A stretch of 52,991 bases of DNA from a virus (IMGVR_UViG_3300011896_000001:1-52991), one strand, 5' to 3'; counted from the stretch's first letter, positions 3,429 through 52,991 are shown. The notes: a model not told the origin generated them from the letters alone. Made by a program: numbers and translations.

Positions 3429-4196
3429 TTAAACCGCCTCCTGATCTTGTTCTTTCTTCAGTCGGTCTATGATGTAGGCTTGTCCTTTTGGTGTTACGTA
3501 TGTTGTTGTCCATGTGAATGCTTCACCGTTTGGTTTCTGTTTAACACCTTGTGCGATTTCAAAGTATCCTTTTTCAACTGCTGGCTGAGTTGGTTCAGTA
3601 GAACGTTTGAACATTAACTCCCATTCTCGAAGCTTTGCGAATAACTGGCGTTGACCAATTTTTACTCCTTGTTTTGTTGCTAACTTTGCAACTTCACTTA
3701 CTTTCAACGTTTGTTCAGATTGCATACACGCTTCTGCGAAGACTACCAATGGTTTCTGCTTTACGATTTGTTGTTGTGCTGCTGCAAGCTTTTCTTTCTC
3801 TTCTTTTAATTTAGTGAGAAGCCCGATTGCAAAGTCTGGATTAGTTACTGCTTGTTCCAGGACTTGATCTGTCATGTATGCTCCGTGTTTTCTAATAGAA
3901 GGAAGTACTTCGCTTGTTACCCACTTTTTGAATGCTTTCGCTTGTGGTTTGCGACTTCTCAAGACTAATGAGTAAAGTCCACTTTCATTGATTGTTTGTA
4001 ATTGTTGTATTCCACCAAGGGTGTCCATACTATGTACTCCCTTTTCATCTTCATCTAAGATTGAAATCGACGTTCTATGATTCTTAATTTCTAGTACATC
4101 GCACACATCTTTCGCTACAAACCAAACATCTTCGCCTTGCACCATCGTTCGAACTTGTCCGAACTCTTCATTATTGAAAACTTGTAATTGATTCAT
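3429..4196 (-). CDS. Phage antirepressor with a Bro-N domain and a KilAC/ANT C-terminal domain.
   Basis: 255 aa. NQLQVFNNEEFGQVRT...WFVAKDVCDVLEI...ESGLYSLVLRSRKPQAKAFKKWVTSEVLPSIRKHG is a classic BRO-N pattern. The C-terminal half is KilAC-like. Confidence 0.9.
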   Translation of the reverse strand: MNQLQVFNNEEFGQVRTMVQGEDVWFVAKDVCDVLEIKNHRTSISILDEDEKGVHSMDTLGGIQQLQTINESGLYSLVLRSRKPQAKAFKKWVTSEVLPSIRKHGAYMTDQVLEQAVTNPDFAIGLLTKLKEEKEKLAAAQQQIVKQKPLVVFAEACMQSEQTLKVSEVAKLATKQGVKIGQRQLFAKLREWELMFKRSTEPTQPAVEKGYFEIAQGVKQKPNGEAFTWTTTYVTPKGQAYIIDRLKKEQDQEAV

Positions 4197-5531: not shown

Positions 5532-6683
5532 TCATAGTAAACCCAAGTAAAATTTAGGTAATTGCGAATAATGGATATTACCAGATTTTTGGCACATCAG
5601 CAAGGACTTTCGTAGTAGAGTTTCCCTCTCTTCTCCTTCGCATGTAAGAGCATAGTACGTCGTTTGGATATCTGTCCATCCTCCGTTTTTCTCTTTTAAA
5701 TCTAATAAAATCTTTTTAGCACCTAAAATATCACCTTCGAGTATCTTTGAATATGCATTTTCACTTGGATGTACAAATTCCAAGGTATCCAAATCTCTTT
5801 GATAATGAATTTTCAAGAAAGATAAGGTTTGTTGGACAAGTTTCCATTTCTTTTCTAACCCTTTGCAATTAGGTTTCCCCAATAATTCTAAGGTTTTCTC
5901 TAAATAAAACTTAGCGTTTTCGTAATTTTCAGGTTCGAATATTAATGACTCACCTATTTTCAAATATGCATTTAATTTTGGAAGTGAGAAAAAGCCATCC
6001 CACTCTAATTCATCTAATATATCTCGGCATATGGAACGAGATTCAACTACTTCTCCACCTTGTAAAGAAGTTACCGCCATTGCTTCCTTATATCTTAGTA
6101 ACAAACATTCTTTTATAAATTTATTTGTTGTGTCATTTATTTTTTCGTTAACTGACTTTAGTCTTTCATATAACGTTTTATAGTTTCCAGATTGATATTG
6201 CGCTTGACATAATAAGATCTCCGTCAAAACTTCCATTTCAATCGTTTTAACATTCTTATTCTTTTGTCTTAATAATTTGAAATAAGTTGAAGCATTCAAA
6301 CCTTCATGATATCTTCGAAAAATTATTTCGTATACTTCTGCAAATTCTCTATTTTCGGCAACATCAGAATGAGCCTCTTGATCTATAATCGCTTTCAATA
6401 ATTCGAATTTGCCTCTAATAGCTAAGTCTTCCATAGCTTCTCTTAAATTTTCAGGTTTGGGGTCTGTGTTCATTATATAGTCATTAACAACTTTCGCCTG
6501 TGAAATCAAACTCTTTTTTAATAAAATAAGCGTCTTCGAAAGATATCCGAAACTAATATCGTTAGCTCCTTTAAATACTTTGGTAACTGTAGCAGGCTTC
6601 ACTCCCCAATAATCAGCTAACTGCTTCTTCTTAAATCCAGCTACATATAATTCTCCTTCAAGATTGTTTAATACCTTCCACAC
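5532..6683 (-). CDS. RRNPP-family peptide receptor/regulator (HTH plus TPR-like repeats), AimR-like, 383 aa from the GTG start.
   Basis: The N-terminal FKKKQLADYWGVKPATVTKVF is an HTH. The rest is a long helical repeat body. The C-terminal QKSGNIHYSQLPKFYLGLL resembles the AimR tail KKSNDKFLIRLPLLEL. An AAAGGGAGG RBS lies 8 nt before the GTG at 6683; the ATG at 6782 has no RBS. Confidence 0.7.
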   Translation of the reverse strand: MWKVLNNLEGELYVAGFKKKQLADYWGVKPATVTKVFKGANDISFGYLSKTLILLKKSLISQAKVVNDYIMNTDPKPENLREAMEDLAIRGKFELLKAIIDQEAHSDVAENREFAEVYEIIFRRYHEGLNASTYFKLLRQKNKNVKTIEMEVLTEILLCQAQYQSGNYKTLYERLKSVNEKINDTTNKFIKECLLLRYKEAMAVTSLQGGEVVESRSICRDILDELEWDGFFSLPKLNAYLKIGESLIFEPENYENAKFYLEKTLELLGKPNCKGLEKKWKLVQQTLSFLKIHYQRDLDTLEFVHPSENAYSKILEGDILGAKKILLDLKEKNGGWTDIQTTYYALTCEGEERETLLRKSLLMCQKSGNIHYSQLPKFYLGLL

Positions 6684-6860
6684 TTCTTGTTCCTCCCTTT
6701 TGGAACAAAGACGCTTCGCTCTTTTTCTCAACTTTTTAAACAGGAAATTCATACCATAGTAATGCTTTAGTAATATCGGCATGTTATAATGTAAGTGTTA
6801 CTCGTGTAGTAACCGAAAAGAGACTTATGGCAGATGTTCCCCTCGTGAGTCGGGCGAACG

Positions 6861-7228: not shown

Positions 7229-7573
7229 ATGATACTCTTTGGACAAACTTTAAAATATTTAAGAAAGTCACGTGATTTAACTCAGACGCAATTAGCTGAC
7301 AGGCTCAATCTGAGTCAAAGTCAAATTAAGAATTGGGAAACTGACAGGTTTCAACCAGATCTTGAAACTTTAATTAGTATCGCCTCCTTCTTCAATGTAT
7401 CATTGGACGTCCTCGTTGGCTATTCTAACGAATTCCAAGATGAACCTATACAAAAGGTCATTTCTGAAACTCAAGCAACGTATGGGGCGTTGGATGAAGC
7501 TCAGAAAGAGCGTTTTTGTAATCAGGTATTGTTATTCGTTCAAATGATTAGAGACAACCGAGAAACGTTCTGA
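7229..7573 (+). CDS. XRE-family HTH regulator, 114 aa.
   Basis: FGQTLKYLRKSRDLTQTQLADRLNLSQSQIKNWETDRFQPD is a canonical HTH_3. There is no recognisable RBS before the ATG, so the transcript may be leaderless. Confidence 0.8.
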   Translation: MILFGQTLKYLRKSRDLTQTQLADRLNLSQSQIKNWETDRFQPDLETLISIASFFNVSLDVLVGYSNEFQDEPIQKVISETQATYGALDEAQKERFCNQVLLFVQMIRDNRETF

Positions 7574-11070: not shown

Positions 11071-11121
11071 TGTAAATGCCCCTATAAGTAGGTTTATACC
11101 ATCTAGTTAACTTAATTGAAG

Positions 11122-11238
11122 GATACAAAGATAGAAAGATACAAAGATACATTTATCCTTAGATACAAAGATACATAGTTTACCTTTGTGTATCTTTAGA
11201 TACAAAGATAAAAAGATAGAAAGATAAAAAGATACATA
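11122..11238. repeat. Phased 8-bp repeat array (GATA[C/G/A]AAA, about 12 units plus one inverted unit); candidate centromere (parS) or iterons.
   Basis: gatacaaa gatagaaa gatacaaa gatacatt tatcctta gatacaaa gatacata ... gatacaaa gataaaaa gatagaaa gataaaaa gatacata, read in register. Confidence 0.8.
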
Positions 11239-11317
11239 AATAAACGTTGATTTTACAAGGTTTTTGTTAAATGTCCTGTACACGTAAAATAGGGGCAATC
11301 TATTAAACATAAAAAAA

Positions 11318-11398
11318 GATACATTTATCCTTTTACTTTTCGTACAATCTCGTGTTATCATCAATTCGAGAATAAAAAGATACAAAGATACATTTATC
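11318..11398. repeat. Two further copies of GATACATTTATCC, with or without a GATACAAA unit, next to the parA promoter region.
   Basis: gatacatttatcc at 11318-11330 and 11386-11398; gatacaaa at 11378-11385. The same 13-mer also occurs at 11146-11158. Confidence 0.7.
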
Positions 11399-11440
11399 CT
11401 TTGTTACAATTATATTACAAATTTAAAAGGAGCGATTCCT

Positions 11441-12370
11441 GTGAAAAAAGGATACGTCATAATCAACGCCCAACAAAAAGGTGGAGTTGGAAAAACAACT
11501 GATTCGTGTATGGAATCTCTTGTAGCTTCTTTAATCTTTAATAAGAAAGTTTTATTTATTGATACTGACCTTCAAGGGAATGGTACATCATTTTTAGCGA
11601 AATCTTTTGATATTACTGAAATGCCTAAAACATTAATGAAATGTCTTGAAGATGGAAACTTATCAGAAGGAATTGTGCATCTGCATGAAAATCTTGATAT
11701 GATCCCATGCGGATATGATATGAGGAAGTACACTGATTTTCTAATTGAGAATTTCAACAATATTGAAGATAGAACTTTTTACCTTGCTAGATTGTTAGAA
11801 AAAATAAAATACAACTACGATTACATATTCATTGATATTCCGCCTTCAACAGATTTAAAAGTGGACAATGCTATGGTAGCTAGTGACTACATTATAGTAG
11901 TTCAAGAGACGCAACAATTTTCATATGAAGGAAGCCAACGTTTAATCTTTGAGTATATGCAGACATTAGTGGATGATTTCGGTTCGCTGGTAAAGCTACA
12001 AGTAGCTGGAGTACTTCCAGTATTACTTCAACAAAAACGTGCCCTACATAAAGAAATTGTAAAAAGTACTATCGCTACTTTTGGTGAAGAAAATGTATTT
12101 AGTACGATTATTAATAATCACGCCCGATTAGAATGGTATCCACGAATCGGACTACAATTTGAGGACCATCACGATAAAAGAATGTTAGCTTTATTCAGTG
12201 ATATTTTCTGTGAATTAGAAGAAAGAATTCATCTTTTTGAAACTGAAGGGGATATAGTTCCAGGCTACAAATACATACCTAAATACCTTGTCGATAATAA
12301 ACTTACTAAATTAGGAAAGGGGATTAACATAAGTGGCTTTAGTCAAAAGAGAACTGCCGAAAGATCCTAA
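11441..12370 (+). CDS. parA: ParA/Soj-family partition ATPase, 309 aa.
   Basis: Deviant Walker A NAQQKGGVGKTT. GTG start with an AAAGGAG RBS. Confidence 0.9.
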   Translation: MKKGYVIINAQQKGGVGKTTDSCMESLVASLIFNKKVLFIDTDLQGNGTSFLAKSFDITEMPKTLMKCLEDGNLSEGIVHLHENLDMIPCGYDMRKYTDFLIENFNNIEDRTFYLARLLEKIKYNYDYIFIDIPPSTDLKVDNAMVASDYIIVVQETQQFSYEGSQRLIFEYMQTLVDDFGSLVKLQVAGVLPVLLQQKRALHKEIVKSTIATFGEENVFSTIINNHARLEWYPRIGLQFEDHHDKRMLALFSDIFCELEERIHLFETEGDIVPGYKYIPKYLVDNKLTKLGKGINISGFSQKRTAERS

Positions 12371-12608
12371 TATAAATGATAAGGCTAATACTACAAGGAA
12401 TACTCAAGGAAAGAAAGTTTTAACAGCTCAAGATAGGAAAAACATTAAAGTTACACCTGAATCATTTAGTAAGATTAAAACCATTTGTACAATGAAGAGT
12501 ATGAAGAATTACGAATTTATTGATGAAATTTTAGAATTCTACATTGCTAATAATTTAACTGAGCGTGAGCAACGCATTTTAAAAAACATAACATCTAACA
12601 ATAAATAG
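12333..12608 (+). CDS. Small DNA-binding protein, probably RHH (ParG/omega-like centromere binder), 91 aa.
   Basis: KNIKVTPESFSKIKTICTMKSMKNYEFIDEILEFYIAN has a strand-helix-helix pattern after a basic unstructured N-terminus. GTG start with a GGAAAGGGG RBS. It overlaps the parA 3' end. Confidence 0.6.
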   Translation: MALVKRELPKDPNINDKANTTRNTQGKKVLTAQDRKNIKVTPESFSKIKTICTMKSMKNYEFIDEILEFYIANNLTEREQRILKNITSNNK

Positions 12609-12996: not shown

Positions 12997-13033
12997 AGAA
13001 GTGTCCTGGTTTTCAGGATGCTTCTTTTTTGTT
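12997..13033 (+). terminator. Intrinsic terminator of the par operon.
   Basis: agaag-tg-tcctg gtttt cagga-tg-cttct followed by TTTTTTGTTT. Confidence 0.8.
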
Positions 13034-13040
13034 TAGTATT

Positions 13041-13093
13041 ATGTATCTAAAGATAAATGTATCTTTTTATCCTTTTATCTTTGTATCTTTTTA
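13041..13093. repeat. Inverted-orientation copy of the 8-bp phased array.
   Basis: The reverse complement reads GATACAAA GATAAAAG GATAAAAA GATACATT TATCTTTA GATACAT. Together with the 11122 array it brackets the par operon. Confidence 0.75.
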
Positions 13094-13132
13094 TTTTAAG
13101 CAGGAAAACAAATACTCCTGCTTCGATTTCCC

Positions 13133-13723
13133 TCACCAGAACTTCCACCACGGCTTTTTCTTTTCTCTCACAGCAGCAACCTCATCACGAAACTCCTGCA
13201 TCATTCTCTTCGTTTCCTGCATCTCACGCAGCGTCTTCATCAGTGTCTCGTCCCTGGCTTCCAATCGTTTTTCCACACGTTCATTATGCGCTTCTACGCT
13301 CGCTTTAATTTCCTCGTTACTTTGCTTGGCCTGGTCACTTAATCGTTTCTCCATCGCTAACATACTCTGATTCATTTCTTGCGCCATAACGCTGTACTGT
13401 TCCTGTAGTTGCTGTTTAATATGGAATGGCACTAAGTCCGTTTCCTCAGCCTCTTCTTGAATCAGATCCGGATTAACTTTCTCTATTTGCTGCGCAATCA
13501 TCTTCGCTGCCTTTTCTAGCGTCATACCGTCATGCTTACTCAGTTCAATTAACTTCTCAATCACCATAATGTCATTGTCTGTGTATTGGCGTCTGCCACG
13601 ATTATCTTTCTTTACAGCGAATCCCTCACGCTGTAATACTTCCATGTACTTTCTAAGGGTGCTATCACTTATTCCTAGTCGTTTGTATACTTCACTAGCA
13701 GAATAAACAATTTCGTCCGTCAT
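13133..13723 (-). CDS. MerR-family HTH regulator with a long C-terminal coiled coil, 196 aa.
   Basis: YSASEVYKRLGISDSTLRKYMEVLQREGFAVKKDNRGRRQYTDNDIMVIEKLIEL is a canonical MerR N-domain. Confidence 0.85.
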   Translation of the reverse strand: MTDEIVYSASEVYKRLGISDSTLRKYMEVLQREGFAVKKDNRGRRQYTDNDIMVIEKLIELSKHDGMTLEKAAKMIAQQIEKVNPDLIQEEAEETDLVPFHIKQQLQEQYSVMAQEMNQSMLAMEKRLSDQAKQSNEEIKASVEAHNERVEKRLEARDETLMKTLREMQETKRMMQEFRDEVAAVREKKKPWWKFW

Positions 13724-13794
13724 AACGTCACGACACCTCCTAGTGAGAGTATTCCATGAGGTTTAAAAAAATCCTGCAAATAAAAAAGCCCTGT

Positions 13795-14382
13795 TTATAC
13801 AGAGCTTTTTTCAGCATTTCTTTTCAATTCATTAAGCCTTTTATCTAGGACCTTGAAATCTTTTGACATATCTGTCAACAATCTCATTATTTTTTCATGT
13901 TGTTCATCTTCCTTTTGTGAAATCTTTTGGTTATTTTCAATTATTTCTTGCATATGTTTGAGTCTTTTGTATTCATCTTCGAGTCTTTCTCTTTCTCTAG
14001 TTACCATAGCCTTTTTATTATTAAATCCAATTGTTACATATACAAAACCTAATGCCAAAAGACTTGCAGTAGTACTTATCGAATCAAGAGTATCTTTATC
14101 CAATGATGTTACAAACTTAGAATTCGGATAAACTAGTATACTCATTGTTGCTAAAATATATAATAAGCTATCAATAAATAGTATAAACTTGTTATTCGAA
14201 TTGTTGTGTCTTTTACTTAAAAAGTCTGCTAGTGTCAAACACAATCCTGATGCTGAGATACCAGTCACTAACGCAGAGCTAATATTCGCAGATCCTGTAG
14301 CATTCCAAAGACCTAAACCAACTATTGCCAACCCAAGATATATTGTTATTTTCTCCATATCCCAAAATAAATCTCTTTCCAT
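13795..14382 (-). CDS. Membrane protein (about 4 TM) with a C-terminal coiled coil, 195 aa from MERDLFW.
   Basis: Track ORF 13795..14499. A GGGAAGG RBS lies before the internal ATG at 14382. Confidence 0.6.
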   Translation of the reverse strand: MERDLFWDMEKITIYLGLAIVGLGLWNATGSANISSALVTGISASGLCLTLADFLSKRHNNSNNKFILFIDSLLYILATMSILVYPNSKFVTSLDKDTLDSISTTASLLALGFVYVTIGFNNKKAMVTRERERLEDEYKRLKHMQEIIENNQKISQKEDEQHEKIMRLLTDMSKDFKVLDKRLNELKRNAEKSSV

Positions 14383-14473
14383 ACCTGAACAACCTTCCCT
14401 AACGTTATATGATGTTACAATTATATAGTAAAATATTGTAATTTGATATCTTAAATACATTAGGTCTAGACTA

Positions 14474-14962
14474 TTAAATAGCCTTTGCAATCTCAACAAG
14501 CAGCCTCATAAATAAAGGAATCATTTGAACAACTATATAACCAATCCCTGCACGACTTATTAGCGAGAATCCCCGTTCCTGGCTACCAACCATAATGAAC
14601 AGCCCACCGCATAACGCTACAACGGATGCAATCGGATAGGATACGGCTTTAATCAAGAAGATAACCGGTTCAAATGCGTTTACAATACGATTGTATAATT
14701 GGCCATCTATATAATTCTTTATCTTTCCGTCGTTTGATTGCACATCTTTAAATACTTCATTTACGTCTGGATTATTTCCATCAGCAAATACATGCGGAAT
14801 ATCTATAATTTGGCTGAATATAATAGCACTACCGATCACAATACTTATTCGCGCCGCCACGGGTGCGTATTTTTTTGCTTTCTTTTTGAACAAGCTCCAC
14901 TTCTTCTTTGCTCCATAGTTACCATCCATAAAATCTTTGATGCTCATTGTCTCAGTTGCCAT
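14474..14962 (-). CDS. Membrane protein, 162 aa from MATETMSIKDF.
   Basis: Track ORF 14474..15103. An AGGGAG RBS lies 9 nt before the ATG at 14962. There are three hydrophobic segments. Confidence 0.6.
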   Translation of the reverse strand: MATETMSIKDFMDGNYGAKKKWSLFKKKAKKYAPVAARISIVIGSAIIFSQIIDIPHVFADGNNPDVNEVFKDVQSNDGKIKNYIDGQLYNRIVNAFEPVIFLIKAVSYPIASVVALCGGLFIMVGSQERGFSLISRAGIGYIVVQMIPLFMRLLVEIAKAI

Positions 14963-14981
14963 ATGGACCATCTCCCTGTTT

Positions 14982-15578
14982 TTAATGGAAATCAGTAACC
15001 GTAAATATGTTACAATCCAATCCCTCACAAAGCTTTTGGAGTTGTTTTCTGCGGTATTCCGTCGTGGTGTACCAAATAAATTTAGGAGACTTTTCAAATA
15101 CATTGCATTCCATTAATTTGCGATACTTCTGCATCTTGATACGGTTCGCGCTCATTTTCTGTTCATGATCCACTTCTACAATGTGATAACGGCCATTATC
15201 CGTAAATAATGCGTCTGCAATTATGGAAACGATACCTTTCACATTCATCTTTACTTCCTGCTTCCATGTTTTCGGGCATTCATAAGCGATGTAAATATCG
15301 TTCCTCATAATGTAATGGCGAAATTGATTCGAACGCTTGAGTATCTTCTTACTTCCGATACGTTCACGCCCTTCCTTGTTAAGATAATAAATCTTTTCTC
15401 CATCCCTAAAGCTAGACACATATTCTTCAATTCCTTTCATAACACGAGAAGCGTTCCTGTCACCGCCAAGATCGTGAAGTACCTGGATTTGCTTCCTGCT
15501 AAGAAAGCCGAGTTTCTTCAAGCTCAAGAGTATACTTTCCGTTCGCGCTTCCTTCATTGCTAACTTTTGCATTTTCAT
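14982..15578 (-). CDS. Replication-relaxation (Replic_Relax) family protein, 198 aa.
   Basis: The N-terminal wHTH is ILLSLKKLGFLSRKQIQVLHDLGGDRNASRVMKGIEE, followed by YYLNKEGRERIG and FRHYIMRNDIYI. It is paired with the FtsK-like gene. Confidence 0.7.
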   Translation of the reverse strand: MKMQKLAMKEARTESILLSLKKLGFLSRKQIQVLHDLGGDRNASRVMKGIEEYVSSFRDGEKIYYLNKEGRERIGSKKILKRSNQFRHYIMRNDIYIAYECPKTWKQEVKMNVKGIVSIIADALFTDNGRYHIVEVDHEQKMSANRIKMQKYRKLMECNVFEKSPKFIWYTTTEYRRKQLQKLCEGLDCNIFTVTDFH

Positions 15579-16794
15579 TCTCCTTTCTCGCTCTGATGTT
15601 GACGTGTGGCTTTATGATGTTATCAATTTGCTTATTATCGATATAAATTGTCTGTAGGACCTTTTTCTCGTTCGTTTGATATATAGCCCTTCCTTTTATG
15701 TTAGGAAGGCTCTCTGCACCGCCCTCGTCTAATACAGCACGGCTCCCTGCTTCTGTCTGTAATCTAAAGCAAACACGAGCGCCAATGTTTTGACGCAGTT
15801 GTGACGGCATAGCGCTATTCGTCGGATATTGGGTTGCATATATTAAACGGAATCCAGCCGCCCTGCCACGACGACCAATATCAACAATAATGTCCTGGCA
15901 CTCCTGATATGGCGCTATATCGGCTGCTTCATCTACGATTACAAAATACCGTACTGGATCCCTGGCTTCTTTTATATCTTCGTATCCTTTTTCTAGTAAG
16001 TATTCGTTTCTTTCATTCAGTTTGGTTTGCAAGTCTCTTAGAGTCTCTAGGGCTTCCTCTGGATTCTTCGCAATTGATTCGACTTGGTTTAAGAATCGGT
16101 AACGGTTGAAAGAGAGACCACCCTTCAAATCTATAAGGAATAGCTTTATATTTTCTGATTGGTTACGTACCAAGGATGTAATGATGAGCTTTAGTACATT
16201 AGATTTACCCATATCCGTCATGCCGGCAGAGATCATATGTGATAACTGGTCAAAGTCGTGTTTTATCAATCCATCCCTTGTATAACCAATAGGTACTTCC
16301 CATCCCCTACATTGCTTCATCATCTCTTCTTCAAATTTCACGAAATCAGGAATCCCTTTCTCGTAAACTCGTATTTTAAGTAACCCATCGTAAGACAGCT
16401 CAATTTCCTTTCTAACGAGTTTTTTCTTGTTTATGATGTTTTGTATTTGTTTTAAGATATCTTTTCGCAGCCGAAGAGATTTGAAGTCTTGTAGTTTAAA
16501 ATCATAAACTTTGCTCTTGTGATTTAATCCGTCCTCTAAATGTTGTATCTTTTGTTCGAAATCGGAGAAGCTAAGACCGAGCGGAATCCTATACGCATAC
16601 TCAACTCCCCATTCATTTCTCGTCTTACGGAGTAGCTGTATGGTCCTGGTCTCTTTCCCTTCTTTTACTTTCAAACCACAATTAGCGCAAATCCTTTGAA
16701 TCTTAGAGGCATCATTTGTTGCTCCTTTTTGATGCATTTTTGATAGAAAAACTACACCACCAACTGCGGCTGAACTTACTAACTCAAATATCAC
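15499..16794 (-). CDS. FtsK/SpoIIIE-family DNA translocase-like ATPase, 431 aa.
   Basis: Walker A is SAGMTDMGKSNVL and Walker B is YFVIVDEAADI. GRAAGFRLIYATQYP is also present, and there is an N-terminal TM segment. Confidence 0.9.
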   Translation of the reverse strand: MIFELVSSAAVGGVVFLSKMHQKGATNDASKIQRICANCGLKVKEGKETRTIQLLRKTRNEWGVEYAYRIPLGLSFSDFEQKIQHLEDGLNHKSKVYDFKLQDFKSLRLRKDILKQIQNIINKKKLVRKEIELSYDGLLKIRVYEKGIPDFVKFEEEMMKQCRGWEVPIGYTRDGLIKHDFDQLSHMISAGMTDMGKSNVLKLIITSLVRNQSENIKLFLIDLKGGLSFNRYRFLNQVESIAKNPEEALETLRDLQTKLNERNEYLLEKGYEDIKEARDPVRYFVIVDEAADIAPYQECQDIIVDIGRRGRAAGFRLIYATQYPTNSAMPSQLRQNIGARVCFRLQTEAGSRAVLDEGGAESLPNIKGRAIYQTNEKKVLQTIYIDNKQIDNIIKPHVNIRARKENENAKVSNEGSANGKYTLELEETRLS

Positions 16795-17106
16795 AAACTC
16801 ACACCACCCTTCTTTATGTATTCTGCAAGAATAGTCCCTGAAGATTAGAAGAGATAAAAACAGCTGTGAATCATTGAAAATACTAATTTTGTAATGTCTA
16901 AAGCAACATTCTGTGAACGAACTCTATTTGGAATAGGTAAAAAGAAGTTTTAAGAGGTCATCAATTTGGAACTGAGAATCGCAATTTGTTTGGTATGGTA
17001 AAAGGTATTCTATACAGCTTGCTCAATATTCACCATTTTTAGGGGTTTATTTTTGGTGAAACTAGGACATTACTAAGGACAACAGATTCTTTAAGGAGTG
17101 AAAGTT

Positions 17107-17331
17107 GTGTGGGGCCTTGGGAAAAAACGTACAAAATTAGGTAAATATTTAGATAAGCATGGAATTGAGCAAGAATGGTTGGTAAGGAAATCAGGTCTTG
17201 GAAGGAATACTGTAGGTGATTTAGCTAATAATCCGGATAGATCACCCACGCGAAAAACAATGCAGAAGATATTGAAGGTATTGAGGGAATTTGATTCAAG
17301 GGTTAAAGCTGATGATTTTTGGGATATGTAA
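17107..17331 (+). CDS. Small HTH regulator, about 74 aa.
   Basis: LVRKSGLGRNTVGDLANNPDRSPTRKTMQKILKVL. An AAGGAG RBS lies 8 nt before the GTG at 17107. The gene is divergent from the FtsK operon. Confidence 0.6.
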   Translation: MWGLGKKRTKLGKYLDKHGIEQEWLVRKSGLGRNTVGDLANNPDRSPTRKTMQKILKVLREFDSRVKADDFWDM

Positions 17332-17332
17332 A

Positions 17333-17367
17333 ATAAGCCGCCCACAGGACGGCTCTTATTTTTTTAC
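17333..17367. terminator. Bidirectional terminator between convergent genes: AGCCG-N9-CGGCT with flanking A and T runs.
   Basis: aaataAGCCGcccacaggaCGGCTcttattttttt. Confidence 0.7.
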
Positions 17368-18299
17368 TTCTCAAACTCCGCATATTCACCTGAAACCCAT
17401 TGATCTCCACCAACATTATACCAACCATCTCTATATCCCCAAGACTGATATCTTTCGTTTTGGTACACATTTTTTACAATATCGTAGTTTGTTCCTGGGC
17501 CAGTACGAACGCGTAATACATCAGCTGTAATAGTCACTACACCAATACCATCATTTGAAGGTTTAGAAGGTGCTGGTGCATTTTCTCCTGTAAAACGAAT
17601 GTATGATGAGTCATTATATACCCACTGATCGCCACCTAAGTTTAGCCACCCATCTGACTCACCCCATACTTGGTAGCATTCTCCTTTTCCTAATTGACGA
17701 ATAACCCCATATCCAGTACCAGGTCCTTTACGAAGGTTAACATTATTCCCCTCAATATATGCAATGCCTGTCCCACTAGATGACGATGGAGTAGGCGTTG
17801 GAGCTACGTTATTACTACCACAGTTATATGCATTTTGTACTCTTTCAATAAAGCTATTCCAACGTCCTTCTGCTAGCATACGATGAGGACAATACTTCCC
17901 ACTCCATGATTGGTGTGTGCGAACTTTACTAATTGGAATATTGTACTGCTTCATTAATTGAGCTACAACAATGGCTGCATTATCTTCCGCTTTATAATAT
18001 CTATCTCCACCATTTAAAGAGTAGCAAATCTCAACTCCGATAGATTTACGATTTCCGTTACCGCCACCATCGCCGCAATGCCAAGCGTTACGTTCTAAAG
18101 GAATTCCTTGTACAGCTTCTTTATCATCTACTGCGATATGAAAAGATACTTGGTTGTCATTACGAATCATATAAGCTACTTCGTTTTCTGCTGTAGCATC
18201 GTTGTAAGTATTGTGGACCGTGATAAATTCAGGAATCATTGTATACGGACACTTTGTACCATATTTACTTGAACTAACTAGATTTTTTCTGATTTCCAT
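17364..18299 (-). CDS. Endolysin: PlyG-like N-acetylmuramoyl-L-alanine amidase (Amidase_2/PGRP) with two SH3b domains.
   Basis: SKYGTKCPYTMIPEFITVHNTYNDATAENEVAYMIRNDNQVSFHIAVDD...NAWHCGDG...THQSWSGKYCPHRML. The C-terminal region carries a duplicated GWxNxGGDQWV motif. Confidence 0.95.
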   Translation of the reverse strand: MEIRKNLVSSSKYGTKCPYTMIPEFITVHNTYNDATAENEVAYMIRNDNQVSFHIAVDDKEAVQGIPLERNAWHCGDGGGNGNRKSIGVEICYSLNGGDRYYKAEDNAAIVVAQLMKQYNIPISKVRTHQSWSGKYCPHRMLAEGRWNSFIERVQNAYNCGSNNVAPTPTPSSSSGTGIAYIEGNNVNLRKGPGTGYGVIRQLGKGECYQVWGESDGWLNLGGDQWVYNDSSYIRFTGENAPAPSKPSNDGIGVVTITADVLRVRTGPGTNYDIVKNVYQNERYQSWGYRDGWYNVGGDQWVSGEYAEFEK

Positions 18300-18903: not shown

Positions 18904-20058
18904 ATGAATAAACGTTACTTAGAATTAGACTCACTACGCGGTTTAGCTGCATTATCTGTACTATTTTATCATTGTTTAAGGATATTTCCGTCCCTTGATA
19001 TTGGGGCTCCTGATTTCGTGAATGATAGTGATAATTGGTTTATTAACGCTTTACTCAATACCCCTCTACGAATATTTTGGTCTGGACACGAATCGGTAAT
19101 TTTATTCTTTATTTTGAGTGGATTTGTACTATCACTACCATATTATGCAGGGAAGAAAATAGAATATAAAACATATATACTAAAAAGGTCTATTCGAATT
19201 TATATTCCGTATGTTATTGCAACTGTTATTGCAATGATAGCAGCCATTACCTTATCTAAAAATGGGTTTTCTATTTACAGTGATTGGTTTAATCGAATTT
19301 GGACTTATGAAACTTCATTCTCAGATATTATGAATCATGTTTTGTTCTTAGGTGATTATAATGCAAATCAGTTTAATACTGTAATTTGGTCGTTAGTGCA
19401 TGAAATGCGTATTTCTATTATTTTTCCTTTTGTAATGTTTTTCGTGTTACGTTTTAATTGGAAATATAATATAAGTCTTAGTTTTGCATTAAGCTTAATC
19501 TCATTTGTGTTACTTAAAGTGTTTATGCCTACATCAAACACGAATTTTATAATTACTATTCATTACACTTCAATGTTTATAATAGGTGCATTATTAGCAA
19601 AACATATAGACGTCATTTCGAATTATTTCAAAAAACTTAGCAAATCTAGCAAAATTATTGTTTTTTTAATTGCAGTAATTTCATACACATACAATGGATT
19701 GTTCTCTAATATTGAGATTATACATAAGTTCCTTATTGATGAATATGCAATTGCAGTTGGAGGATCTTTATTTATTATTATCGCCTTATCATCAGATGTT
19801 TTTTCGAAATTTTTAAATTTAAGACCCATATTATTTTTAGGTAAAATTTCTTATAGTTTATATCTATACCATACAATAATATTATTCTCACTAATTTACA
19901 TTTTTAACGACGTACTTCCGATTTCTATAATTTTATTTAGCGTCATAATACTTTCACTTATTTTATCTAGTATTTTTTATTATCTAGTAGAATCTCCATC
20001 TATGAAATTAGGTAAAAAGATATCTAATAAAAAACACACACAAAATAAAGCAGCTTAA
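18904..20058 (+). CDS. Acyltransferase_3-family integral membrane O-acyltransferase; a moron in reverse orientation.
   Basis: YLELDSLRGLAALSVLFYHC followed by about 10 TM segments. It has its own RBS and terminator and is the only plus-strand gene inside the late region. Confidence 0.9.
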   Translation: MNKRYLELDSLRGLAALSVLFYHCLRIFPSLDIGAPDFVNDSDNWFINALLNTPLRIFWSGHESVILFFILSGFVLSLPYYAGKKIEYKTYILKRSIRIYIPYVIATVIAMIAAITLSKNGFSIYSDWFNRIWTYETSFSDIMNHVLFLGDYNANQFNTVIWSLVHEMRISIIFPFVMFFVLRFNWKYNISLSFALSLISFVLLKVFMPTSNTNFIITIHYTSMFIIGALLAKHIDVISNYFKKLSKSSKIIVFLIAVISYTYNGLFSNIEIIHKFLIDEYAIAVGGSLFIIIALSSDVFSKFLNLRPILFLGKISYSLYLYHTIILFSLIYIFNDVLPISIILFSVIILSLILSSIFYYLVESPSMKLGKKISNKKHTQNKAA

Positions 20059-26699: not shown

Positions 26700-29600
26700 T
26701 CATCTTCCTTTTAAATAAGATTTGATCTGAATATTACTAGATTGCATATCACTTATGATTGGCTCAGTAACTCGTGCCATCTCATATCCATCTACAATAA
26801 GCACATTTTCGATTACTGTGGGTTTTTGTTGTACTGTAGCAGCATTTCCAGAAGCGCCATTTTGCGATTTCACCATTGCACTTTGACCAAAATTAGAAGT
26901 TGGAGTGCTTGAAATACTAGAAGGTGTCTTATATCCTGCTGAAACCATTGGAACCGAAGGGCCGGACACCGTTCCCATAGATATGTTGCCCAGTGTTATC
27001 TCATCTGTTAATGGATCAAACGCTTCTTTTACTGTTTCGGCCATGGTCTTAGCTGCTCGATACACTGGATTTTCCATTGAACTAATACCCTTTACTAACC
27101 CTTGTCCTGTGTATACACCATAATCTCGCATTAAACGAGATGGAGAATGTATAACTAAAAAACCACTTACTGCATCAGCTACACTACTAGCAACGCTTAC
27201 TGCTGCATCCCATGCTGCGTTAACCATTGAACCAATACCGTTAATTAAACCTTGGATAGCATTAACACCAAGGTCGAATAAATCGATATCGCCCAATGAA
27301 TCAAGTAATTGACTACCTATTTCTATACCGGAACTAAATATTTCTCCGAGTAAACTTAAAATACCATCAATTAGAGCTCCTATTAATTGTATTCCTGCAG
27401 AAAGTAATTGCGGTAAATTTTGAATAATAGCTTTTAATAATTCTCCTATTAATCTAATTCCTGCTGCAATCAATTGAGGAAGTACTTTGATAATACCTTC
27501 AATCAGTTTTGTTAAGATTTTTACACCTGCATCAATAATTAAAGGTAAATTTTGCACAATAACTTCTGTAAACTTATTGATAATTTTTATTACCGCATCG
27601 ATAATTTGCGGAAGGACTTTAATAATACCTTCGATAAGTTTAGTTAAAATTTGAATCCCTGATTCAATAATTTGCGGTAAGTTCTGCAAAATAGAGTCAG
27701 TAAATTGTGTGATAATTTGAAGTGCTGCATCTATAAGTTGCGGTAATATCTGAATTATCCCTTGGATCAACGAATTGAGAATTTGTATACCAGCATCAAT
27801 AATTAAAGGTAAATTTTGTACAAGAGAATCCATCAATGTTGTAATGATCTGCATTGCAGCGTCTATTAGTTGTGGTAATATTTGAATTATCCCGTTGATA
27901 AGAGCCATTAAAATTTGTATACCAGCATCAATTAATTGTGGGATTAATGGGATTATAGTTTGTACTAAAGTTGTTATAATTTGAATCCCTGCGTTGATAA
28001 TTAATGGCAACACCTGCGTTATTCCTTGGACTAATGCATTTATAATTTGTGTAGATGCATTAATCATTTGTGGTAACGCTTGAATCATTGCAGATACTAA
28101 CGTTTGGATTAGCGAAATACCAATAATTATAATTTGTGGCAACAATGTAGTTAAGGTTGTGACAAATGTTGTGATTATCTGAGAAATTACCGTTACCACT
28201 TGAGGGAGAGCTTGTGTAATTCCCTGAACAATACCCACTATTATTTTTACACCTTGTTCTAAAAATACTGGCAATTGAGTTGAAACGAAATTCGTAAATG
28301 TAGAAACAAGCGTATTCATTATCTCTCCAAACTTTTGAACCAACACTTCTCCACTTACTCCAAATGCATCTGCCATGTGAGCAAATAACGTTGAAACCCC
28401 AATTACTAATCCAGGAACTCCACCAAGTAAGATGGCGATTATGCTAGGTATTAATTTAGCAAACAAGTCCGTTATTTGCGTGAAATCTCCATGGAAAGCA
28501 CTTACTACAGCTTCTTTAATACTAGCGAAAGTCTCTCGTAACCTTTCACCGAAGTTTAAGATCATCGTAATTAAATTATCATTAAGACCCATAGATTTCA
28601 TGATTTCTGCGCCATTGTCACTATTACCAGCCAACGATGCGATAAAACCTTTAATGACTGCTTTTACAGTATTCAGCGCACTATTAAGGGCACGACCAAA
28701 AGAGACAACCTTTTCGATTGCCCCAACGGGAATTCCAGCAGCAACAAGTAAGTCAATATCAGCTGTACCACCAGCTTTCACTTCTTGTCCAAATGCTTTT
28801 AATAATAATTTAATTGAATTTAGATTGTGATTAACTTTCGCCCCTGCTTTTGTAAAAGCGTTAATAGCATTATCTGATATACCTGCCGCTTTCAACAAAT
28901 CTATATCAGCGCTTCCTTGTTGTTTTACTTCTTTACCAAATGCTCCAATAAGCATACTAATAGAATTTAAATTATGGCGAACCTTATCACCTGCGGTAGC
29001 TATTTTTGCAGCTGTTTCTTCAGAAATACCTGTAGCCTTCATAATTTCCATTGCTGCATCTGTATTACCTCGTAATCCCGCGGAGAATCCCTTGATAATA
29101 CTAGACAATTGAATGAACGGTTTCTTGATCATATCAACATGTTTATTTATAAGTTGAATTGTATCGTCACCAATACCTATAGAGTAAAGTAAGTCTTGCC
29201 CTTTAATTGGATTTCCGAATATCAACTGTGCAAAACCTTTTATTGCCTTACCTAAGTTATTAACAGCCTTTCTAAATGGTTCTACATTTTTATAAGCATA
29301 ACTTAATCCAACGGCTAATCCCGCCAAAGCGGCCGCTACTGCCCACGCTACAGGGCTCGCCATAGCTAAAACCATCACGGCAGGTTTAATAACCATCCAT
29401 AAAGCAGCAAATGCAGCTCTATATCCTTTTAGTAATCCCATTCCTGCCCCTAAGGGTAGCAATAGGAGTGTTAAGGCTGGAACAAGCATCATGGTCCCTT
29501 GTATAAATCTTGCTAATGCGGGATGTGCTTCATTAAATGCGGTAACCATTTTAGCCATAGCCGTGACGGTGTTATATATCGGTATCATCATAGCAGCGAA

Positions 29601-30392
29601 TGCATCACGCATAGGCTTAAGTGCATCAGTTAAAGCTTCTATCATATCCTTATACGCTTTTGCATATTTAGGGTTCATTTCCATATTAGCTTGATGTAAC
29701 TTACCATAAAACATCACAGCACTAATACCAACAACTAAGAAGGCTTGAGTCATCCCCATAATTGATTGGTTAATAATTCGTATCTGATCGTTCAATTGTT
29801 TAGCATTAGCTGTCGGCCCAAGAAACTCCAATGCTAATTGGGCCGCAGAGCTTCTATTAGCTAACCTTTCCATAGCATCGGTTGCAGCTAACGTTCCGCG
29901 TGAAAGGTTATACAAAGGATTACCCATTCGTTGCAGATTCGCTTTAAGTTTACTAGACGTAGTAGACATGTTATTCATCATACCGATTGTTTGTAATAAA
30001 CTAGCCTGCATGAATACATCATTTGCCATCATCGCATCATTTGCTGCTTTTTCAGCAGCGCCAATTGCATTAATCTGAGAAATTAAATCCTGAGCACTAC
30101 CGGAATACGTTGCCATTCCCATAGCGGCATCAAGATAAGCTAACTTTGTTCTTTTTAACTCTTCAATATGCGGACGCATAGCTTCTCTTTGTTCTGCTTT
30201 TAGTCGCCTTAATCTTCGGCTATACTCACTTGTAGAATCACCCATATTTTCAAGACTGCGATTGTATTGGCGTGAGCACGCAGTAGTTGCTCTGGTAAAC
30301 TCGTTTAATTGACGTTGCATATCCGACATTTCACGTCTAATCTGATCTGTTTCAGCTCTGAATTGTACCACTAATTCTTCTTGTGTCGCCAA
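26700..30392 (-). CDS. Tape measure protein, 1230 aa.
   Basis: Called from size, TM-like central block and position. About 16 tandem ~20-aa LPQ(L/I)IDAGIQI-type repeats occupy roughly 27360-28290. Confidence 0.95.
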   Translation of the reverse strand: MATQEELVVQFRAETDQIRREMSDMQRQLNEFTRATTACSRQYNRSLENMGDSTSEYSRRLRRLKAEQREAMRPHIEELKRTKLAYLDAAMGMATYSGSAQDLISQINAIGAAEKAANDAMMANDVFMQASLLQTIGMMNNMSTTSSKLKANLQRMGNPLYNLSRGTLAATDAMERLANRSSAAQLALEFLGPTANAKQLNDQIRIINQSIMGMTQAFLVVGISAVMFYGKLHQANMEMNPKYAKAYKDMIEALTDALKPMRDAFAAMMIPIYNTVTAMAKMVTAFNEAHPALARFIQGTMMLVPALTLLLLPLGAGMGLLKGYRAAFAALWMVIKPAVMVLAMASPVAWAVAAALAGLAVGLSYAYKNVEPFRKAVNNLGKAIKGFAQLIFGNPIKGQDLLYSIGIGDDTIQLINKHVDMIKKPFIQLSSIIKGFSAGLRGNTDAAMEIMKATGISEETAAKIATAGDKVRHNLNSISMLIGAFGKEVKQQGSADIDLLKAAGISDNAINAFTKAGAKVNHNLNSIKLLLKAFGQEVKAGGTADIDLLVAAGIPVGAIEKVVSFGRALNSALNTVKAVIKGFIASLAGNSDNGAEIMKSMGLNDNLITMILNFGERLRETFASIKEAVVSAFHGDFTQITDLFAKLIPSIIAILLGGVPGLVIGVSTLFAHMADAFGVSGEVLVQKFGEIMNTLVSTFTNFVSTQLPVFLEQGVKIIVGIVQGITQALPQVVTVISQIITTFVTTLTTLLPQIIIIGISLIQTLVSAMIQALPQMINASTQIINALVQGITQVLPLIINAGIQIITTLVQTIIPLIPQLIDAGIQILMALINGIIQILPQLIDAAMQIITTLMDSLVQNLPLIIDAGIQILNSLIQGIIQILPQLIDAALQIITQFTDSILQNLPQIIESGIQILTKLIEGIIKVLPQIIDAVIKIINKFTEVIVQNLPLIIDAGVKILTKLIEGIIKVLPQLIAAGIRLIGELLKAIIQNLPQLLSAGIQLIGALIDGILSLLGEIFSSGIEIGSQLLDSLGDIDLFDLGVNAIQGLINGIGSMVNAAWDAAVSVASSVADAVSGFLVIHSPSRLMRDYGVYTGQGLVKGISSMENPVYRAAKTMAETVKEAFDPLTDEITLGNISMGTVSGPSVPMVSAGYKTPSSISSTPTSNFGQSAMVKSQNGASGNAATVQQKPTVIENVLIVDGYEMARVTEPIISDMQSSNIQIKSYLKGR

Positions 30393-52217: not shown

Positions 52218-52991
52218 TTATGCCGTTCTATAACTAACTCCCTTAACTTGGTACAAGTATTTCTTGCTCATTCCATACAAACGATCAGCTGCCGCAAATC
52301 CTATTTTGTCTTCCAATGTGTCTAAGTCTTCATTGCTTGTATACCAAATCGGTAAATTCCGTAAGTATCGTTCATTAATAATCTTGTAATACATATCCTC
52401 TTTGAACTCGCTGTACTTCGATTTTGCTATGTCATCCCACACAAGAATGTCACAAGTGCATAAGTCATGAAGTAATTCGTTTAATCGCTTTTTATTGTCA
52501 TTTAGGAACGCTGCATTTTGTATTTCAGCCATAATATTCACATCCTGAACACATAACACTCGTATCCCTCTTAAACGCCCTGTACGCTCATCTACGACCT
52601 TGAATTTATTCAAAGCGTATTTAGCTGCTGCTATTTGTAAATGAGTCTTACCTAATCCATACGAGTTGTTTTCCTGACGCATTTTGTTTCGTTCTCCTGG
52701 AGGCAAACTTTTTAATCTCGTTTCACCAACTGACGCAATAAAACCGATACTATTCATCTTTGAATCTCTAATTTCGTTAAAGACTTTCAAATACTCGATC
52801 ATAGCATCATATAAAACTTTCTGCACTTCTGCTTCTCTTATGTAGTTATCGAATCGTGCATTTTCAAACTCAGATGGAATCATTGCGTACTTGAAACGAG
52901 ATTTTAGACTTTTCCGTTCTAAGCATTCACATTCGATAGCAACATCAACATATTTTCCTTTTAGAAATTCAGATGGCTCTTTAATGAATGT
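52218..52991 (-). CDS. DnaC/DnaI (IstB-like AAA+) helicase loader. The 3' part is shown here; the ORF runs through the terminal duplication and its 5' end is at 108..257.
   Basis: Walker A is NSYGLGKTHL and Walker B is ILVWDDIAKS. My translation of 52884-52991 is stop-free in the same frame. Confidence 0.85.
   Translation of the reverse strand, partial: TFIKEPSEFLKGKYVDVAIECECLERKSLKSRFKYAMIPSEFENARFDNYIREAEVQKVLYDAMIEYLKVFNEIRDSKMNSIGFIASVGETRLKSLPPGERNKMRQENNSYGLGKTHLQIAAAKYALNKFKVVDERTGRLRGIRVLCVQDVNIMAEIQNAAFLNDNKKRLNELLHDLCTCDILVWDDIAKSKYSEFKEDMYYKIINERYLRNLPIWYTSNEDLDTLEDKIGFAAADRLYGMSKKYLYQVKGVSYRTA
52885..52991. repeat. Second copy of the terminal duplication, identical to 1-107.
   Basis: Exact 107/107 identity, read directly. 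Confidence 0.95.

Follow-up and report, generated by a model that had tools for sequence, protein, structure and literature searches.

The FtsK/SpoIIIE gene of the gamma, W-beta and Fah phages and of many other Bacillus phages has been annotated for about 20 years, with a vague link to sporulation or "DNA translocation" as its sole explanation, and an "FtsK/SpoIIIE-replication-relaxation" operon has been listed in plasmid prophages without being explained (PMC11526630). The partner family, Replic_Relax (PF13814), has been placed in the PD-(D/E)XK superfamily (PMC3424549) and serves as the MobC profile of CONJscan, i.e. as the MOBC class of relaxases (PMC5357655). Within that class, TraX is reported to bind five direct repeats located 70-120 bp from nic via an N-terminal winged helix-turn-helix (wHTH) (PMC12857230), and a coupling protein followed by a relaxase is also the gene order found in integrative and conjugative elements (ICEs) and integrative and mobilizable elements (IMEs) (PMC5357655). 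Here we analyzed a viral sequence of 52,991 nucleotides (IMGVR_UViG_3300011896_000001:1-52991; this whole stretch is hereafter the window), a siphovirus-type plasmid prophage of the Bacillus cereus group, in which genes for an FtsK-like ATPase (the pump), a Replic_Relax protein (the nuclease) and a small membrane protein follow one another on the minus strand. To judge from their homologies, the products of this cassette are all components of the kind used in conjugation (a coupling ATPase, a nuclease that resembles relaxases and a protein that resembles pilins), and a candidate region resembling an origin of transfer (oriT) lies directly upstream. The reading that we tentatively favor, with a probability somewhat short of even, is that of a conjugation-derived module which has an oriT-like site to itself, cuts the phage DNA there and pumps this DNA at the membrane.

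We compared 164 related loci (80 viral and 80 genomic, from a Replic_Relax profile search, plus four earlier ones), which were searched with the window proteins. The pump was present in 163, Replic_Relax in all 164 and membrane protein 1 in 161, and the order pump, Replic_Relax, membrane protein 1 on a single strand is always kept. A homolog of the XRE regulator lies upstream of the pump in divergent orientation in 106 of these loci. The conserved unit that follows from this synteny is therefore three genes and a cis site, usually under a divergent XRE regulator. In the window, the interval 16794..13133 holds five consecutive open reading frames (ORFs) on the minus strand, which the original prediction had described as one operon encoding an FtsK-like ATPase, a Replic_Relax protein, two membrane proteins and a MerR-type regulator, with a small helix-turn-helix gene facing away from it. 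The domain calls hold for all five genes and for the divergent gene, an XRE/HTH_3 regulator at 17098..17331 on the plus strand (PF01381, E = 5e-5). One operon they are not, because a strong terminator precedes the MerR gene and synteny keeps only three of the five: MerR/DUF3967 occurs in 54 of the 164 loci, exclusively those of plasmid type from the B. cereus group and at times on the opposite strand, and a homolog of membrane protein 2 occurs in only 10. Both are variable neighbors between the cassette and the partition (par) locus.

The pump gene (16794..15499, minus strand; phrog_1358) begins with GTG at 16794 and encodes 431 aa with a match to PF01580 (E = 8e-19). Its closest solved relative is 6o1z, a "DNA translocase coupling protein" aligned over residues 95-389 (E = 1e-19), which we take to be TcpA of pCW3. 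FtsK matches the pump at E = 5e-13 over residues 283-372 only (~90 residues), and no VirD4 or TrwB chain stood among the solved-structure matches listed for it. The sequence reads GMTDMGKS at Walker A and VIVDEA at Walker B, the N-terminus carries one conserved, moderately hydrophobic segment (residues 1-19, mean hydropathy 1.55), and a gamma-type DNA-recognition domain is absent. These features suggest that the pump is a hexameric translocase of DNA, TcpA/FtsK-like and hydrophobic over a short N-terminal stretch. A search with NCBIfam models returned nothing for the pump beyond far sub-threshold ATPase-domain matches to EccC, EssC and TraB.

The nuclease gene (14982..15572, minus strand; PF13814, E = 8e-11) may start at ATG 15578, giving 198 aa, or at the better-spaced ATG 15572, giving 196 aa; its start overlaps the end of the pump gene by 74-80 nt (74 nt with ATG 15572), as had been anticipated. 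With 42.9 bits the protein passes the curated PF13814 cut-off of 25.3 bits, and the TraX homolog of pAM373, typed MOBC by MOB-suite, scores 27.1 bits against the same profile. The AlphaFold2 (AF2) model of the nuclease (pLDDT 95.8) shows an N-terminal winged helix and a C-terminal PD-(D/E)XK nuclease, for which the top Foldseek matches were nucleases of the Can2/Card1/VC1899/Bax1 type. Across 50 sequences, residues E106, D120, E133, D135, Q138 and Y150 are invariant and K139 is kept in at least 90%; the active site is intact. In a comparison with hhalign, the nuclease aligned with the pAM373 TraX homolog over 157 columns (E = 1.7e-5, probability 78.5%), and D120, E133, D135 and K139 were paired with the D/E/E/K of that protein. 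No solved structure of the PF13814 family was found. Homology and model together point to the Replic_Relax protein being a MOBC-relaxase-like combination of a wHTH and a PD-(D/E)XK nuclease.

Membrane protein 1 (14474..14962, minus strand; phrog_5422) has 162 aa and starts at ATG 14962 after an AGGGAG ribosome-binding site. Hydrophobic segments occupy residues 35-53, 100-118 and 138-156, and the protein is arranged as a cytoplasmic MSIKDFM motif, a signal-like transmembrane segment, which in many relatives has an Ala-x-Ala-like end, and a two-helix hydrophobic hairpin; the protein thus has the leader and two-helix hairpin of TrbC/VirB2 pilins. VirB2-like proteins are unusual in monoderm systems (PMC12857230). 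Among 31 diverse members of the family, 25 match PF18895 (T4SS_pilin) and 19 match PF04956 (TrbC) at E <= 1, and two relatives pass the TrbC cut-off of 27.9 bits, at 32.5 and 28.2 bits. The AF2 model has a mean pLDDT of 60, with a helical hairpin at residues 84-161 modeled at 72-86. Foldseek matched this model to generic helical hairpins only, a profile of the family found no match among PDB sequences, and a word-based homolog search with the protein reached only B. cereus-group relatives. Remote homology searches or structure prediction had been proposed for both membrane proteins. By way of its relatives, membrane protein 1 appears to be a TrbC/VirB2-like, pilin-type protein, and membrane protein 2 has no family match in Pfam or PHROGs.

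Between the XRE gene and the pump lies an intergenic control region of ~300 bp (16795..17097, minus strand), a candidate oriT-like region whose architecture, not its sequence, is conserved across relatives. Its most regular feature is a GGGAC followed by the perfect hairpin TATTCT-tgc-AGAATA (16819..16838, minus strand), which occurs once in the window and directly precedes the ribosome-binding site, its distance to the downstream GTG being 24 nt, and which is a candidate either for a cleavage site or for a regulatory hairpin. A perfect Watson-Crick hairpin of at least 5 bp stands at the GGGAC position in 87 of 99 distinct loci, compared with 0-7 of 99 at other offsets and 1.8% of shuffles. 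The stems take at least 20 different sequences and contain G.T in only 4 of 535 pairs, as expected of covarying positions; the hairpin has the form TAT...ATA, and on the sense strand its loop is usually T-N-C. Farther from the pump, the window carries four copies of an 8-mer, (A/G)T(T/A)(C/A)CAAA or ATTCCAAA-like, at 16996-16989, 16972-16965, 16934-16927 and 16895-16888, together with two longer repeats, TTTTACC(A/T)AT(A/T)CCAAA, that begin ~209 and ~148 nt upstream of the pump start codon. In relatives, tandem 8-mers spaced 12-13 nt apart are found at -190..-110 in 29 of 62 non-redundant loci, versus 10% of shuffles. In the oriT of pAM373, five direct repeats of 12 nt likewise lie next to a large inverted repeat, and by analogy the layout of the phage region, direct repeats and then GGGAC plus hairpin, resembles an oriT of the TraX type.

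Several further candidates for structure in this region were rejected. RNAalifold predicted no pairs on a MAFFT alignment of the upstream regions because loop lengths differ, and the anchored hairpin counts given above were used instead. Folded as RNA, the leader of the window has a z-score of ~0; energy alone therefore gives no support for a structured RNA, and Rfam has no family at the upstream region. For a long-range helix (AAACGAA...TTCGTTT and similar), cognate pairings were only slightly better than non-cognate ones (on average 5.9 versus 5.2 nt, with stems of at least 8 nt in 19% versus 4%); we read these long-range pairs as inverted copies of the repeats, not as a helix.

RNA-seq assemblies from four runs cover the cassette; they are unstranded contigs from relatives ~90-95% identical, which speak to the presence of a transcript only, with DNA carry-over possible. 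One contig of 1,390 nt extends from the 3' part of the pump gene through the nuclease gene and ends where the pilin-like gene does, which fits a transcript that carries all three genes. In runs X28 and X26, the leader and the first 200 nt of the pump gene (16594-17009) reach a depth of 128, versus 5-17, and position 16594 is exactly where contigs of two different organisms break off. A short and abundant 5' transcript, a site of processing or the limit of similarity between co-resident elements could account for this.

Starting from the homologies, the catalytic residues, the three-gene synteny and the hairpin with its repeats, we infer binding, cutting, pumping and a destination as follows. 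The Replic_Relax protein would bind the locus-specific direct repeats upstream of the operon via its winged helix, and its PD-(D/E)XK domain would cut or nick at the conserved GGGAC-hairpin, as TraX does at the oriT of pAD1. The hexameric TcpA/FtsK-like pump, with its N-terminus as a hold on the membrane, would then take up and pump the cut DNA, and the TrbC/VirB2-like protein would provide its partner or conduit in the membrane. Since the sole copy of the site adjoins the operon, the DNA acted upon would be the phage's own genome. Possible destinations include a resident conjugative channel of the host, a neighboring cell in the chain (cf. Streptomyces TraB/Spd) or the forespore. A more far-reaching version, in which tailed phages of spore-forming bacilli carry a self-sufficient, conjugation-derived export device (oriT, restriction-like relaxase, TcpA-type pump and pilin-like membrane subunit) that moves the phage genome across a membrane without a virion, whether into a neighbor in the chain, into the forespore or via a borrowed channel into a recipient, seems to us improbable. 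The original prediction had seen in these genes a second DNA-handling module separate from a DnaD/DnaC/Erf set, which our results support; among the functions that it offered, DNA transfer fits the homology of all three proteins and the oriT-like region.

The carriers of the cassette are varied. A module ~90% identical is found in 116 plasmids of the B. cereus group. In integrated prophages, the trio sits directly after the lysis genes and adjoins the attachment junction, as in phage PK5.2, where its neighbor is a site-specific recombinase, in a Priestia prophage, and in a prophage of Geobacillus thermodenitrificans that is inserted in the competence gene comGA. At the junction of the last (L004, 9252-9608) lies a 118-aa T2SSE fragment, followed by comGB-GG. 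The cassette is also present in Andromeda-like phages of B. pumilus, which have been described as lytic. Within a phage collection of 50,697 records, Replic_Relax homologs occur in 106, among them those of podophages Page and Pony and of the W-beta/gamma/Fah group; apart from two entries labelled Staphylococcus, all come from phages that infect Bacillus, Geobacillus or Virgibacillus. The two records labelled Staphylococcus phage (OR670591.1 and OR670592.1) have a Replic_Relax protein 45.0% identical to that of the window, and B. cereus phage DZ1 one that is 45.5% identical; the label may be wrong, or the module may rarely have been transferred outside the Bacillaceae. Chromosomal and plasmid carriers are nearly all Bacillaceae or close relatives, with two records labelled Paenibacillus and Nocardioides. 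A search at the DNA level against phages gave no close relative of the module, matching only its XRE/amidase edge. Phage Fah forms clear plaques only and expresses the pump gene as a delayed-early gene of the lytic cycle (PMC4113786).

A second clade of pump and nuclease, 32-37% identical, is carried by large plasmids of the B. cereus group and by W-beta-like phages, and lacks a pilin-like gene after Replic_Relax. Its members (W-beta, L172, 4424-6769; plasmid pl186, L165, 2844-5162) have a ~100-aa protein and a 60-aa, two-helix membrane protein before the pump and a convergent helix-turn-helix gene after the nuclease; the pilin-like hairpin may have its counterpart, relocated or reduced to a minimum, in this 60-aa protein. 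This distribution bears on two earlier claims. Pairs of this kind had been called typical of plasmids and conjugative elements, an incomplete description: the clade of the window is typical of Bacillaceae phages, and the second clade occurs in large plasmids and in W-beta-like phages. The pair had also been taken to mark a plasmid "maintenance island", a view that is not supported, given the presence of the same trio in integrating prophages, clear-plaque Fah, Andromeda-like phages and Page/Pony.

A number of observations weigh against transfer of phage DNA from an oriT-like site. The link between the nuclease and TraX, drawn from sequence comparison, is weak. The window's own pilin-like protein has no direct Pfam match, because this copy is too divergent, and most matches of its family to pilin profiles lie below the curated cut-off. 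In the cis region, the repeats of the window are less regular than those of relatives, and the hairpin lies close enough to the ribosome-binding site (10-20 nt) that it could instead serve as an operator or as part of a leader structure. In favor of specificity, one residue in the recognition helix of the nuclease varies with the repeat sequence (Q with TTCGTT in 13 of 25 versus 5 of 69, N with TATTCC in 11 of 28 versus 2 of 66), but the association is uncorrected for linkage or for ~8,000 k-mer tests, and linkage alone could explain it. VirB2-like proteins normally need channel partners, and no channel gene (VirB4, VirB6 or other) was detected among the window ORFs tested, the largest of which (at least 377 aa) were all tail, portal or terminase genes, with a 1,230-aa ORF at 26700-30392 and many smaller ones unscanned. 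Analogs of VirB4, VirB6 and VirB8 from the FA type of type IV secretion system (T4SS) were likewise absent from the window ORFs scanned and from the neighborhoods inspected. MOB-suite typed 100 of the 116 carrier plasmids as non-mobilizable, and clear-plaque or reportedly lytic carriers gain no obvious use from virion-free transfer. The cassette lies directly beside the Pycsar genes PycTM and cyclase in the Priestia prophage (L167, 5833-7119), and beside AbiTii and an integrase in a chromosomal prophage of Nanhaiella (L168, 5167-6915), whose pump gene is shortened to 308 aa. Finally, our literature searches found no functional experiment on the cassette.

The main rival, in our judgment an unlikely one, is superinfection exclusion or defense, in which the membrane translocase, the nuclease and the small membrane protein would intercept and cut the incoming DNA of a competing phage or plasmid and the upstream repeats and hairpin would be merely regulatory. 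The trio does sit where accessory genes classically do, between the lysis genes and the end of the prophage, and has an XRE regulator to itself, and its neighbors include the Pycsar and AbiTii genes just described; PHROGs files the pump under "moron/host takeover", and lytic phages too would profit from keeping competitors out. PADLOC 2.0 reported a partial match of the pump to the defense proteins SspH and mads_8, but only through the generic ATPase domain, and with the nuclease and the membrane proteins matching no model, the cassette corresponded to none of its defense systems. Moreover, defense cargo usually varies among related phages, whereas these three genes stay together whatever the genus or type of phage. 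The closest relatives of all three proteins are conjugation proteins, and exclusion would leave the conserved cis element beside the operon unexplained.

Two other explanations were weighed. In one, which we find very doubtful, the module serves segregation in spore formers: the sequence-specific protein would load a SpoIIIE-like pump, which would move or clear the extrachromosomal phage genome across a septum that is closing in division or sporulation, with carriage into daughter cells or spores, or the resolution of trapped dimers, as the benefit. Such a device would suit lytic, integrating and plasmid phages alike, a sporulation link of the phage FtsK/SpoIIIE gene has long been speculated upon (PMC4113786, PMC3359378), and the host range described above, confined among phages to Bacillus, Geobacillus, Virgibacillus and the two records labelled Staphylococcus and among other carriers almost entirely to Bacillaceae or close relatives, would accord with it. 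This restriction may merely mirror where the phage lineage lives, however, and the wider PF13814 family with FtsK-like partners also occurs in non-sporulating streptococci, enterococci and actinobacteria (PMC3424549, PMC5357655). The pump lacks the gamma-type domain, simple segregation would not need a strictly conserved nuclease active site, and the par locus already gives partition. In the other, a replication module, the nuclease would nick an origin for rolling-circle or plasmid-state replication with the FtsK-like ATPase as motor, forming the replicon of the plasmid prophage. The name of the Pfam family comes partly from a report on plasmid replication, that of pUA140 (PMC3424549), PHROGs labels the Replic_Relax family (phrog_2190) "replication initiation protein", the upstream repeats are iteron-like, the par locus is the immediate neighbor of the cassette in the window, and the related pair in plasmid pl186 lies 3.4-5.2 kb from the record start. 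Yet DnaD- and DnaC-type genes are already present in the window and in relatives (BVE2, W-beta), the closest relatives of the pump are translocases and coupling proteins, not helicases, and a putative membrane anchor and a pilin-like partner make little sense for a replisome. The cassette is spread over integrating, lytic and plasmid phages; a plasmid-state replicon is therefore highly unlikely, and a stand-in for a missing recombinase, which had also been suggested, is unlikely.

The remaining genes of the window place the cassette in its context. Structural genes are 83% identical to their counterparts in Bacillus phage 0105phi7-2, a terrestrial metagenome run contains the exact sequence of the window, and the conventional genes from which the module had been set apart were all found: DnaD-like (136-936), ERF (1370-2071) and DnaC/IstB-like (52218-52883), as well as ParA (11441-12370). 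Downstream of the cassette, and separated from membrane protein 1 by a 91-nt AT-rich gap, lies the gene for membrane protein 2 (13795..14382, minus strand; ATG 14382, 195 aa), a variable neighbor outside the conserved cassette. Three of its segments exceed the hydropathy cut-off and a fourth can be made out by eye; the coiled-coil tail includes a charged helix of ~70 aa at the C-terminus. An intrinsic terminator (13782..13811, minus strand), placed between membrane protein 2 and the MerR gene, consists of a hairpin and then a U-run (-17.5 kcal/mol, z = -4.0), and none of 200 shuffles folded equally well; an Rfam scan of 13000-17400 gave only two sub-threshold chance matches, both at this hairpin. 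The MerR/DUF3967 gene (13133..13723, minus strand; ATG 13723; PF13411 and PF13152; phrog_3470) has its own strong ribosome-binding site and is a separate unit from the cassette; its product joins a MerR_1 helix-turn-helix to a coiled-coil middle and a DUF3967 tail that ends in KKKPWWKFW.

Beyond the MerR gene, the ParA/PrgO-like partition cassette is bounded by inverted arrays of the 8-bp AAAGATAC repeat. These arrays, at 11114-11420 and 13040-13100, are inverted copies of one another (54 nt, 87% complementary) around the ParA, PrgO-like and 119-aa genes, and resemble parS-L and parS-R described for phage RBClin15; the right array stops 33 nt from the MerR/DUF3967 stop codon. ParA is followed by a small protein (12333-12608) that matches the NCBIfam "DNA segregation protein PrgO" model at 58 bits (cut-off 100) and is likely a centromere-binding partner of the enterococcal pheromone-plasmid type. 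Between the early genes and the par locus lie an AimR-type (arbitrium) regulator (5532-6782), a Bro-N/KilAC antirepressor (3429-4196) and a CI-like helix-turn-helix protein (7229-7573), and the lysis-lysogeny switch of the phage is probably controlled by a peptide. On the plus strand, between holin/amidase and tail genes, an Acyl_transf_3 membrane acyltransferase (18904-20058) has a GC content of 27%, versus ~36% elsewhere, and is likely a lysogenic-conversion moron that alters the cell surface.

The gene pair itself is already routinely annotated; we read the cassette as a mobilization-type MOBC/TcpA module in tailed phages, and our literature searches found no description of the trio as TcpA-like, MOBC-like and VirB2-like proteins with a conserved upstream site. 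On the transfer reading, the long-annotated FtsK/SpoIIIE gene would belong to a fixed set of three genes for conjugation proteins that has an oriT-like site to itself. Should the module move phage DNA, the boundary that separates transduction from conjugation would become blurred, with a bearing on the spread of phage-plasmids in the B. cereus group, and virion-free export would give phages a second route of transmission. If it instead excludes incoming DNA, it would represent a new type of defense made from conjugation parts. With either outcome, the poorly studied MOBC family would gain many natural variants that are compact, easy to handle and accompanied by the DNA sites that match them.

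Compared with known systems, the pump shares the ATPase family PF01580 and probably a membrane association with FtsK/SpoIIIE, and is much smaller, lacking the four-helix membrane domain as well as the gamma domain. Like the TraB/Spd/clt system of Streptomyces, the module combines an FtsK-like pump, perhaps working without a full T4SS, with small membrane proteins and short recognition repeats (PMC12857230); TraB, however, reads its repeats itself and needs no nuclease, bacilli are not mycelial, and the match of the pump to the TraB model of NCBIfam is weak (34 bits, cut-off 800). With TrbC/VirB2 pilins, the phage protein shares a long leader with a signal-like segment and two hydrophobic helices joined by a short basic loop, and it differs in an extra conserved cytoplasmic N-terminal motif and in that no VirB4 assembly ATPase was found. 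TcpA has two clear transmembrane helices, whereas the phage pump has one weak N-terminal hydrophobic segment; its partner relaxase is MOBC-like, not Rep_trans or tyrosine-recombinase-like, and no FA-type T4SS was found nearby. Shared with the TcpA-type coupling proteins of pCW3, of Tn916/ICEBs1/ICESt3 and of streptococcal IMEs is the position of the ATPase gene directly upstream of a relaxase-like gene (PMC5357655), and with mobilizable elements the compact module of coupling protein and relaxase.

It is the MOBC relaxases, TraX of pAD1, its pAM373 homolog and MobC of CloDF13, that offer the remaining comparison. The phage nuclease is shorter (196 vs 261 aa) and has a D-E-D triad in place of D-E-E, its partner ATPase is TcpA/FtsK-like, not VirD4-like, and its inverted repeat is a hairpin of 5-7 bp as opposed to ~140 bp. 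The carrier here is a tailed phage in which no conjugation channel was found, and nicking is a predicted activity. The likeness lies in the PF13814 core of wHTH and PD-(D/E)XK domain with its acidic triad, in a gene that adjoins that of a coupling ATPase, and, among the relatives of the window, in short direct repeats with a period of ~12 nt set at a distance from an inverted repeat.

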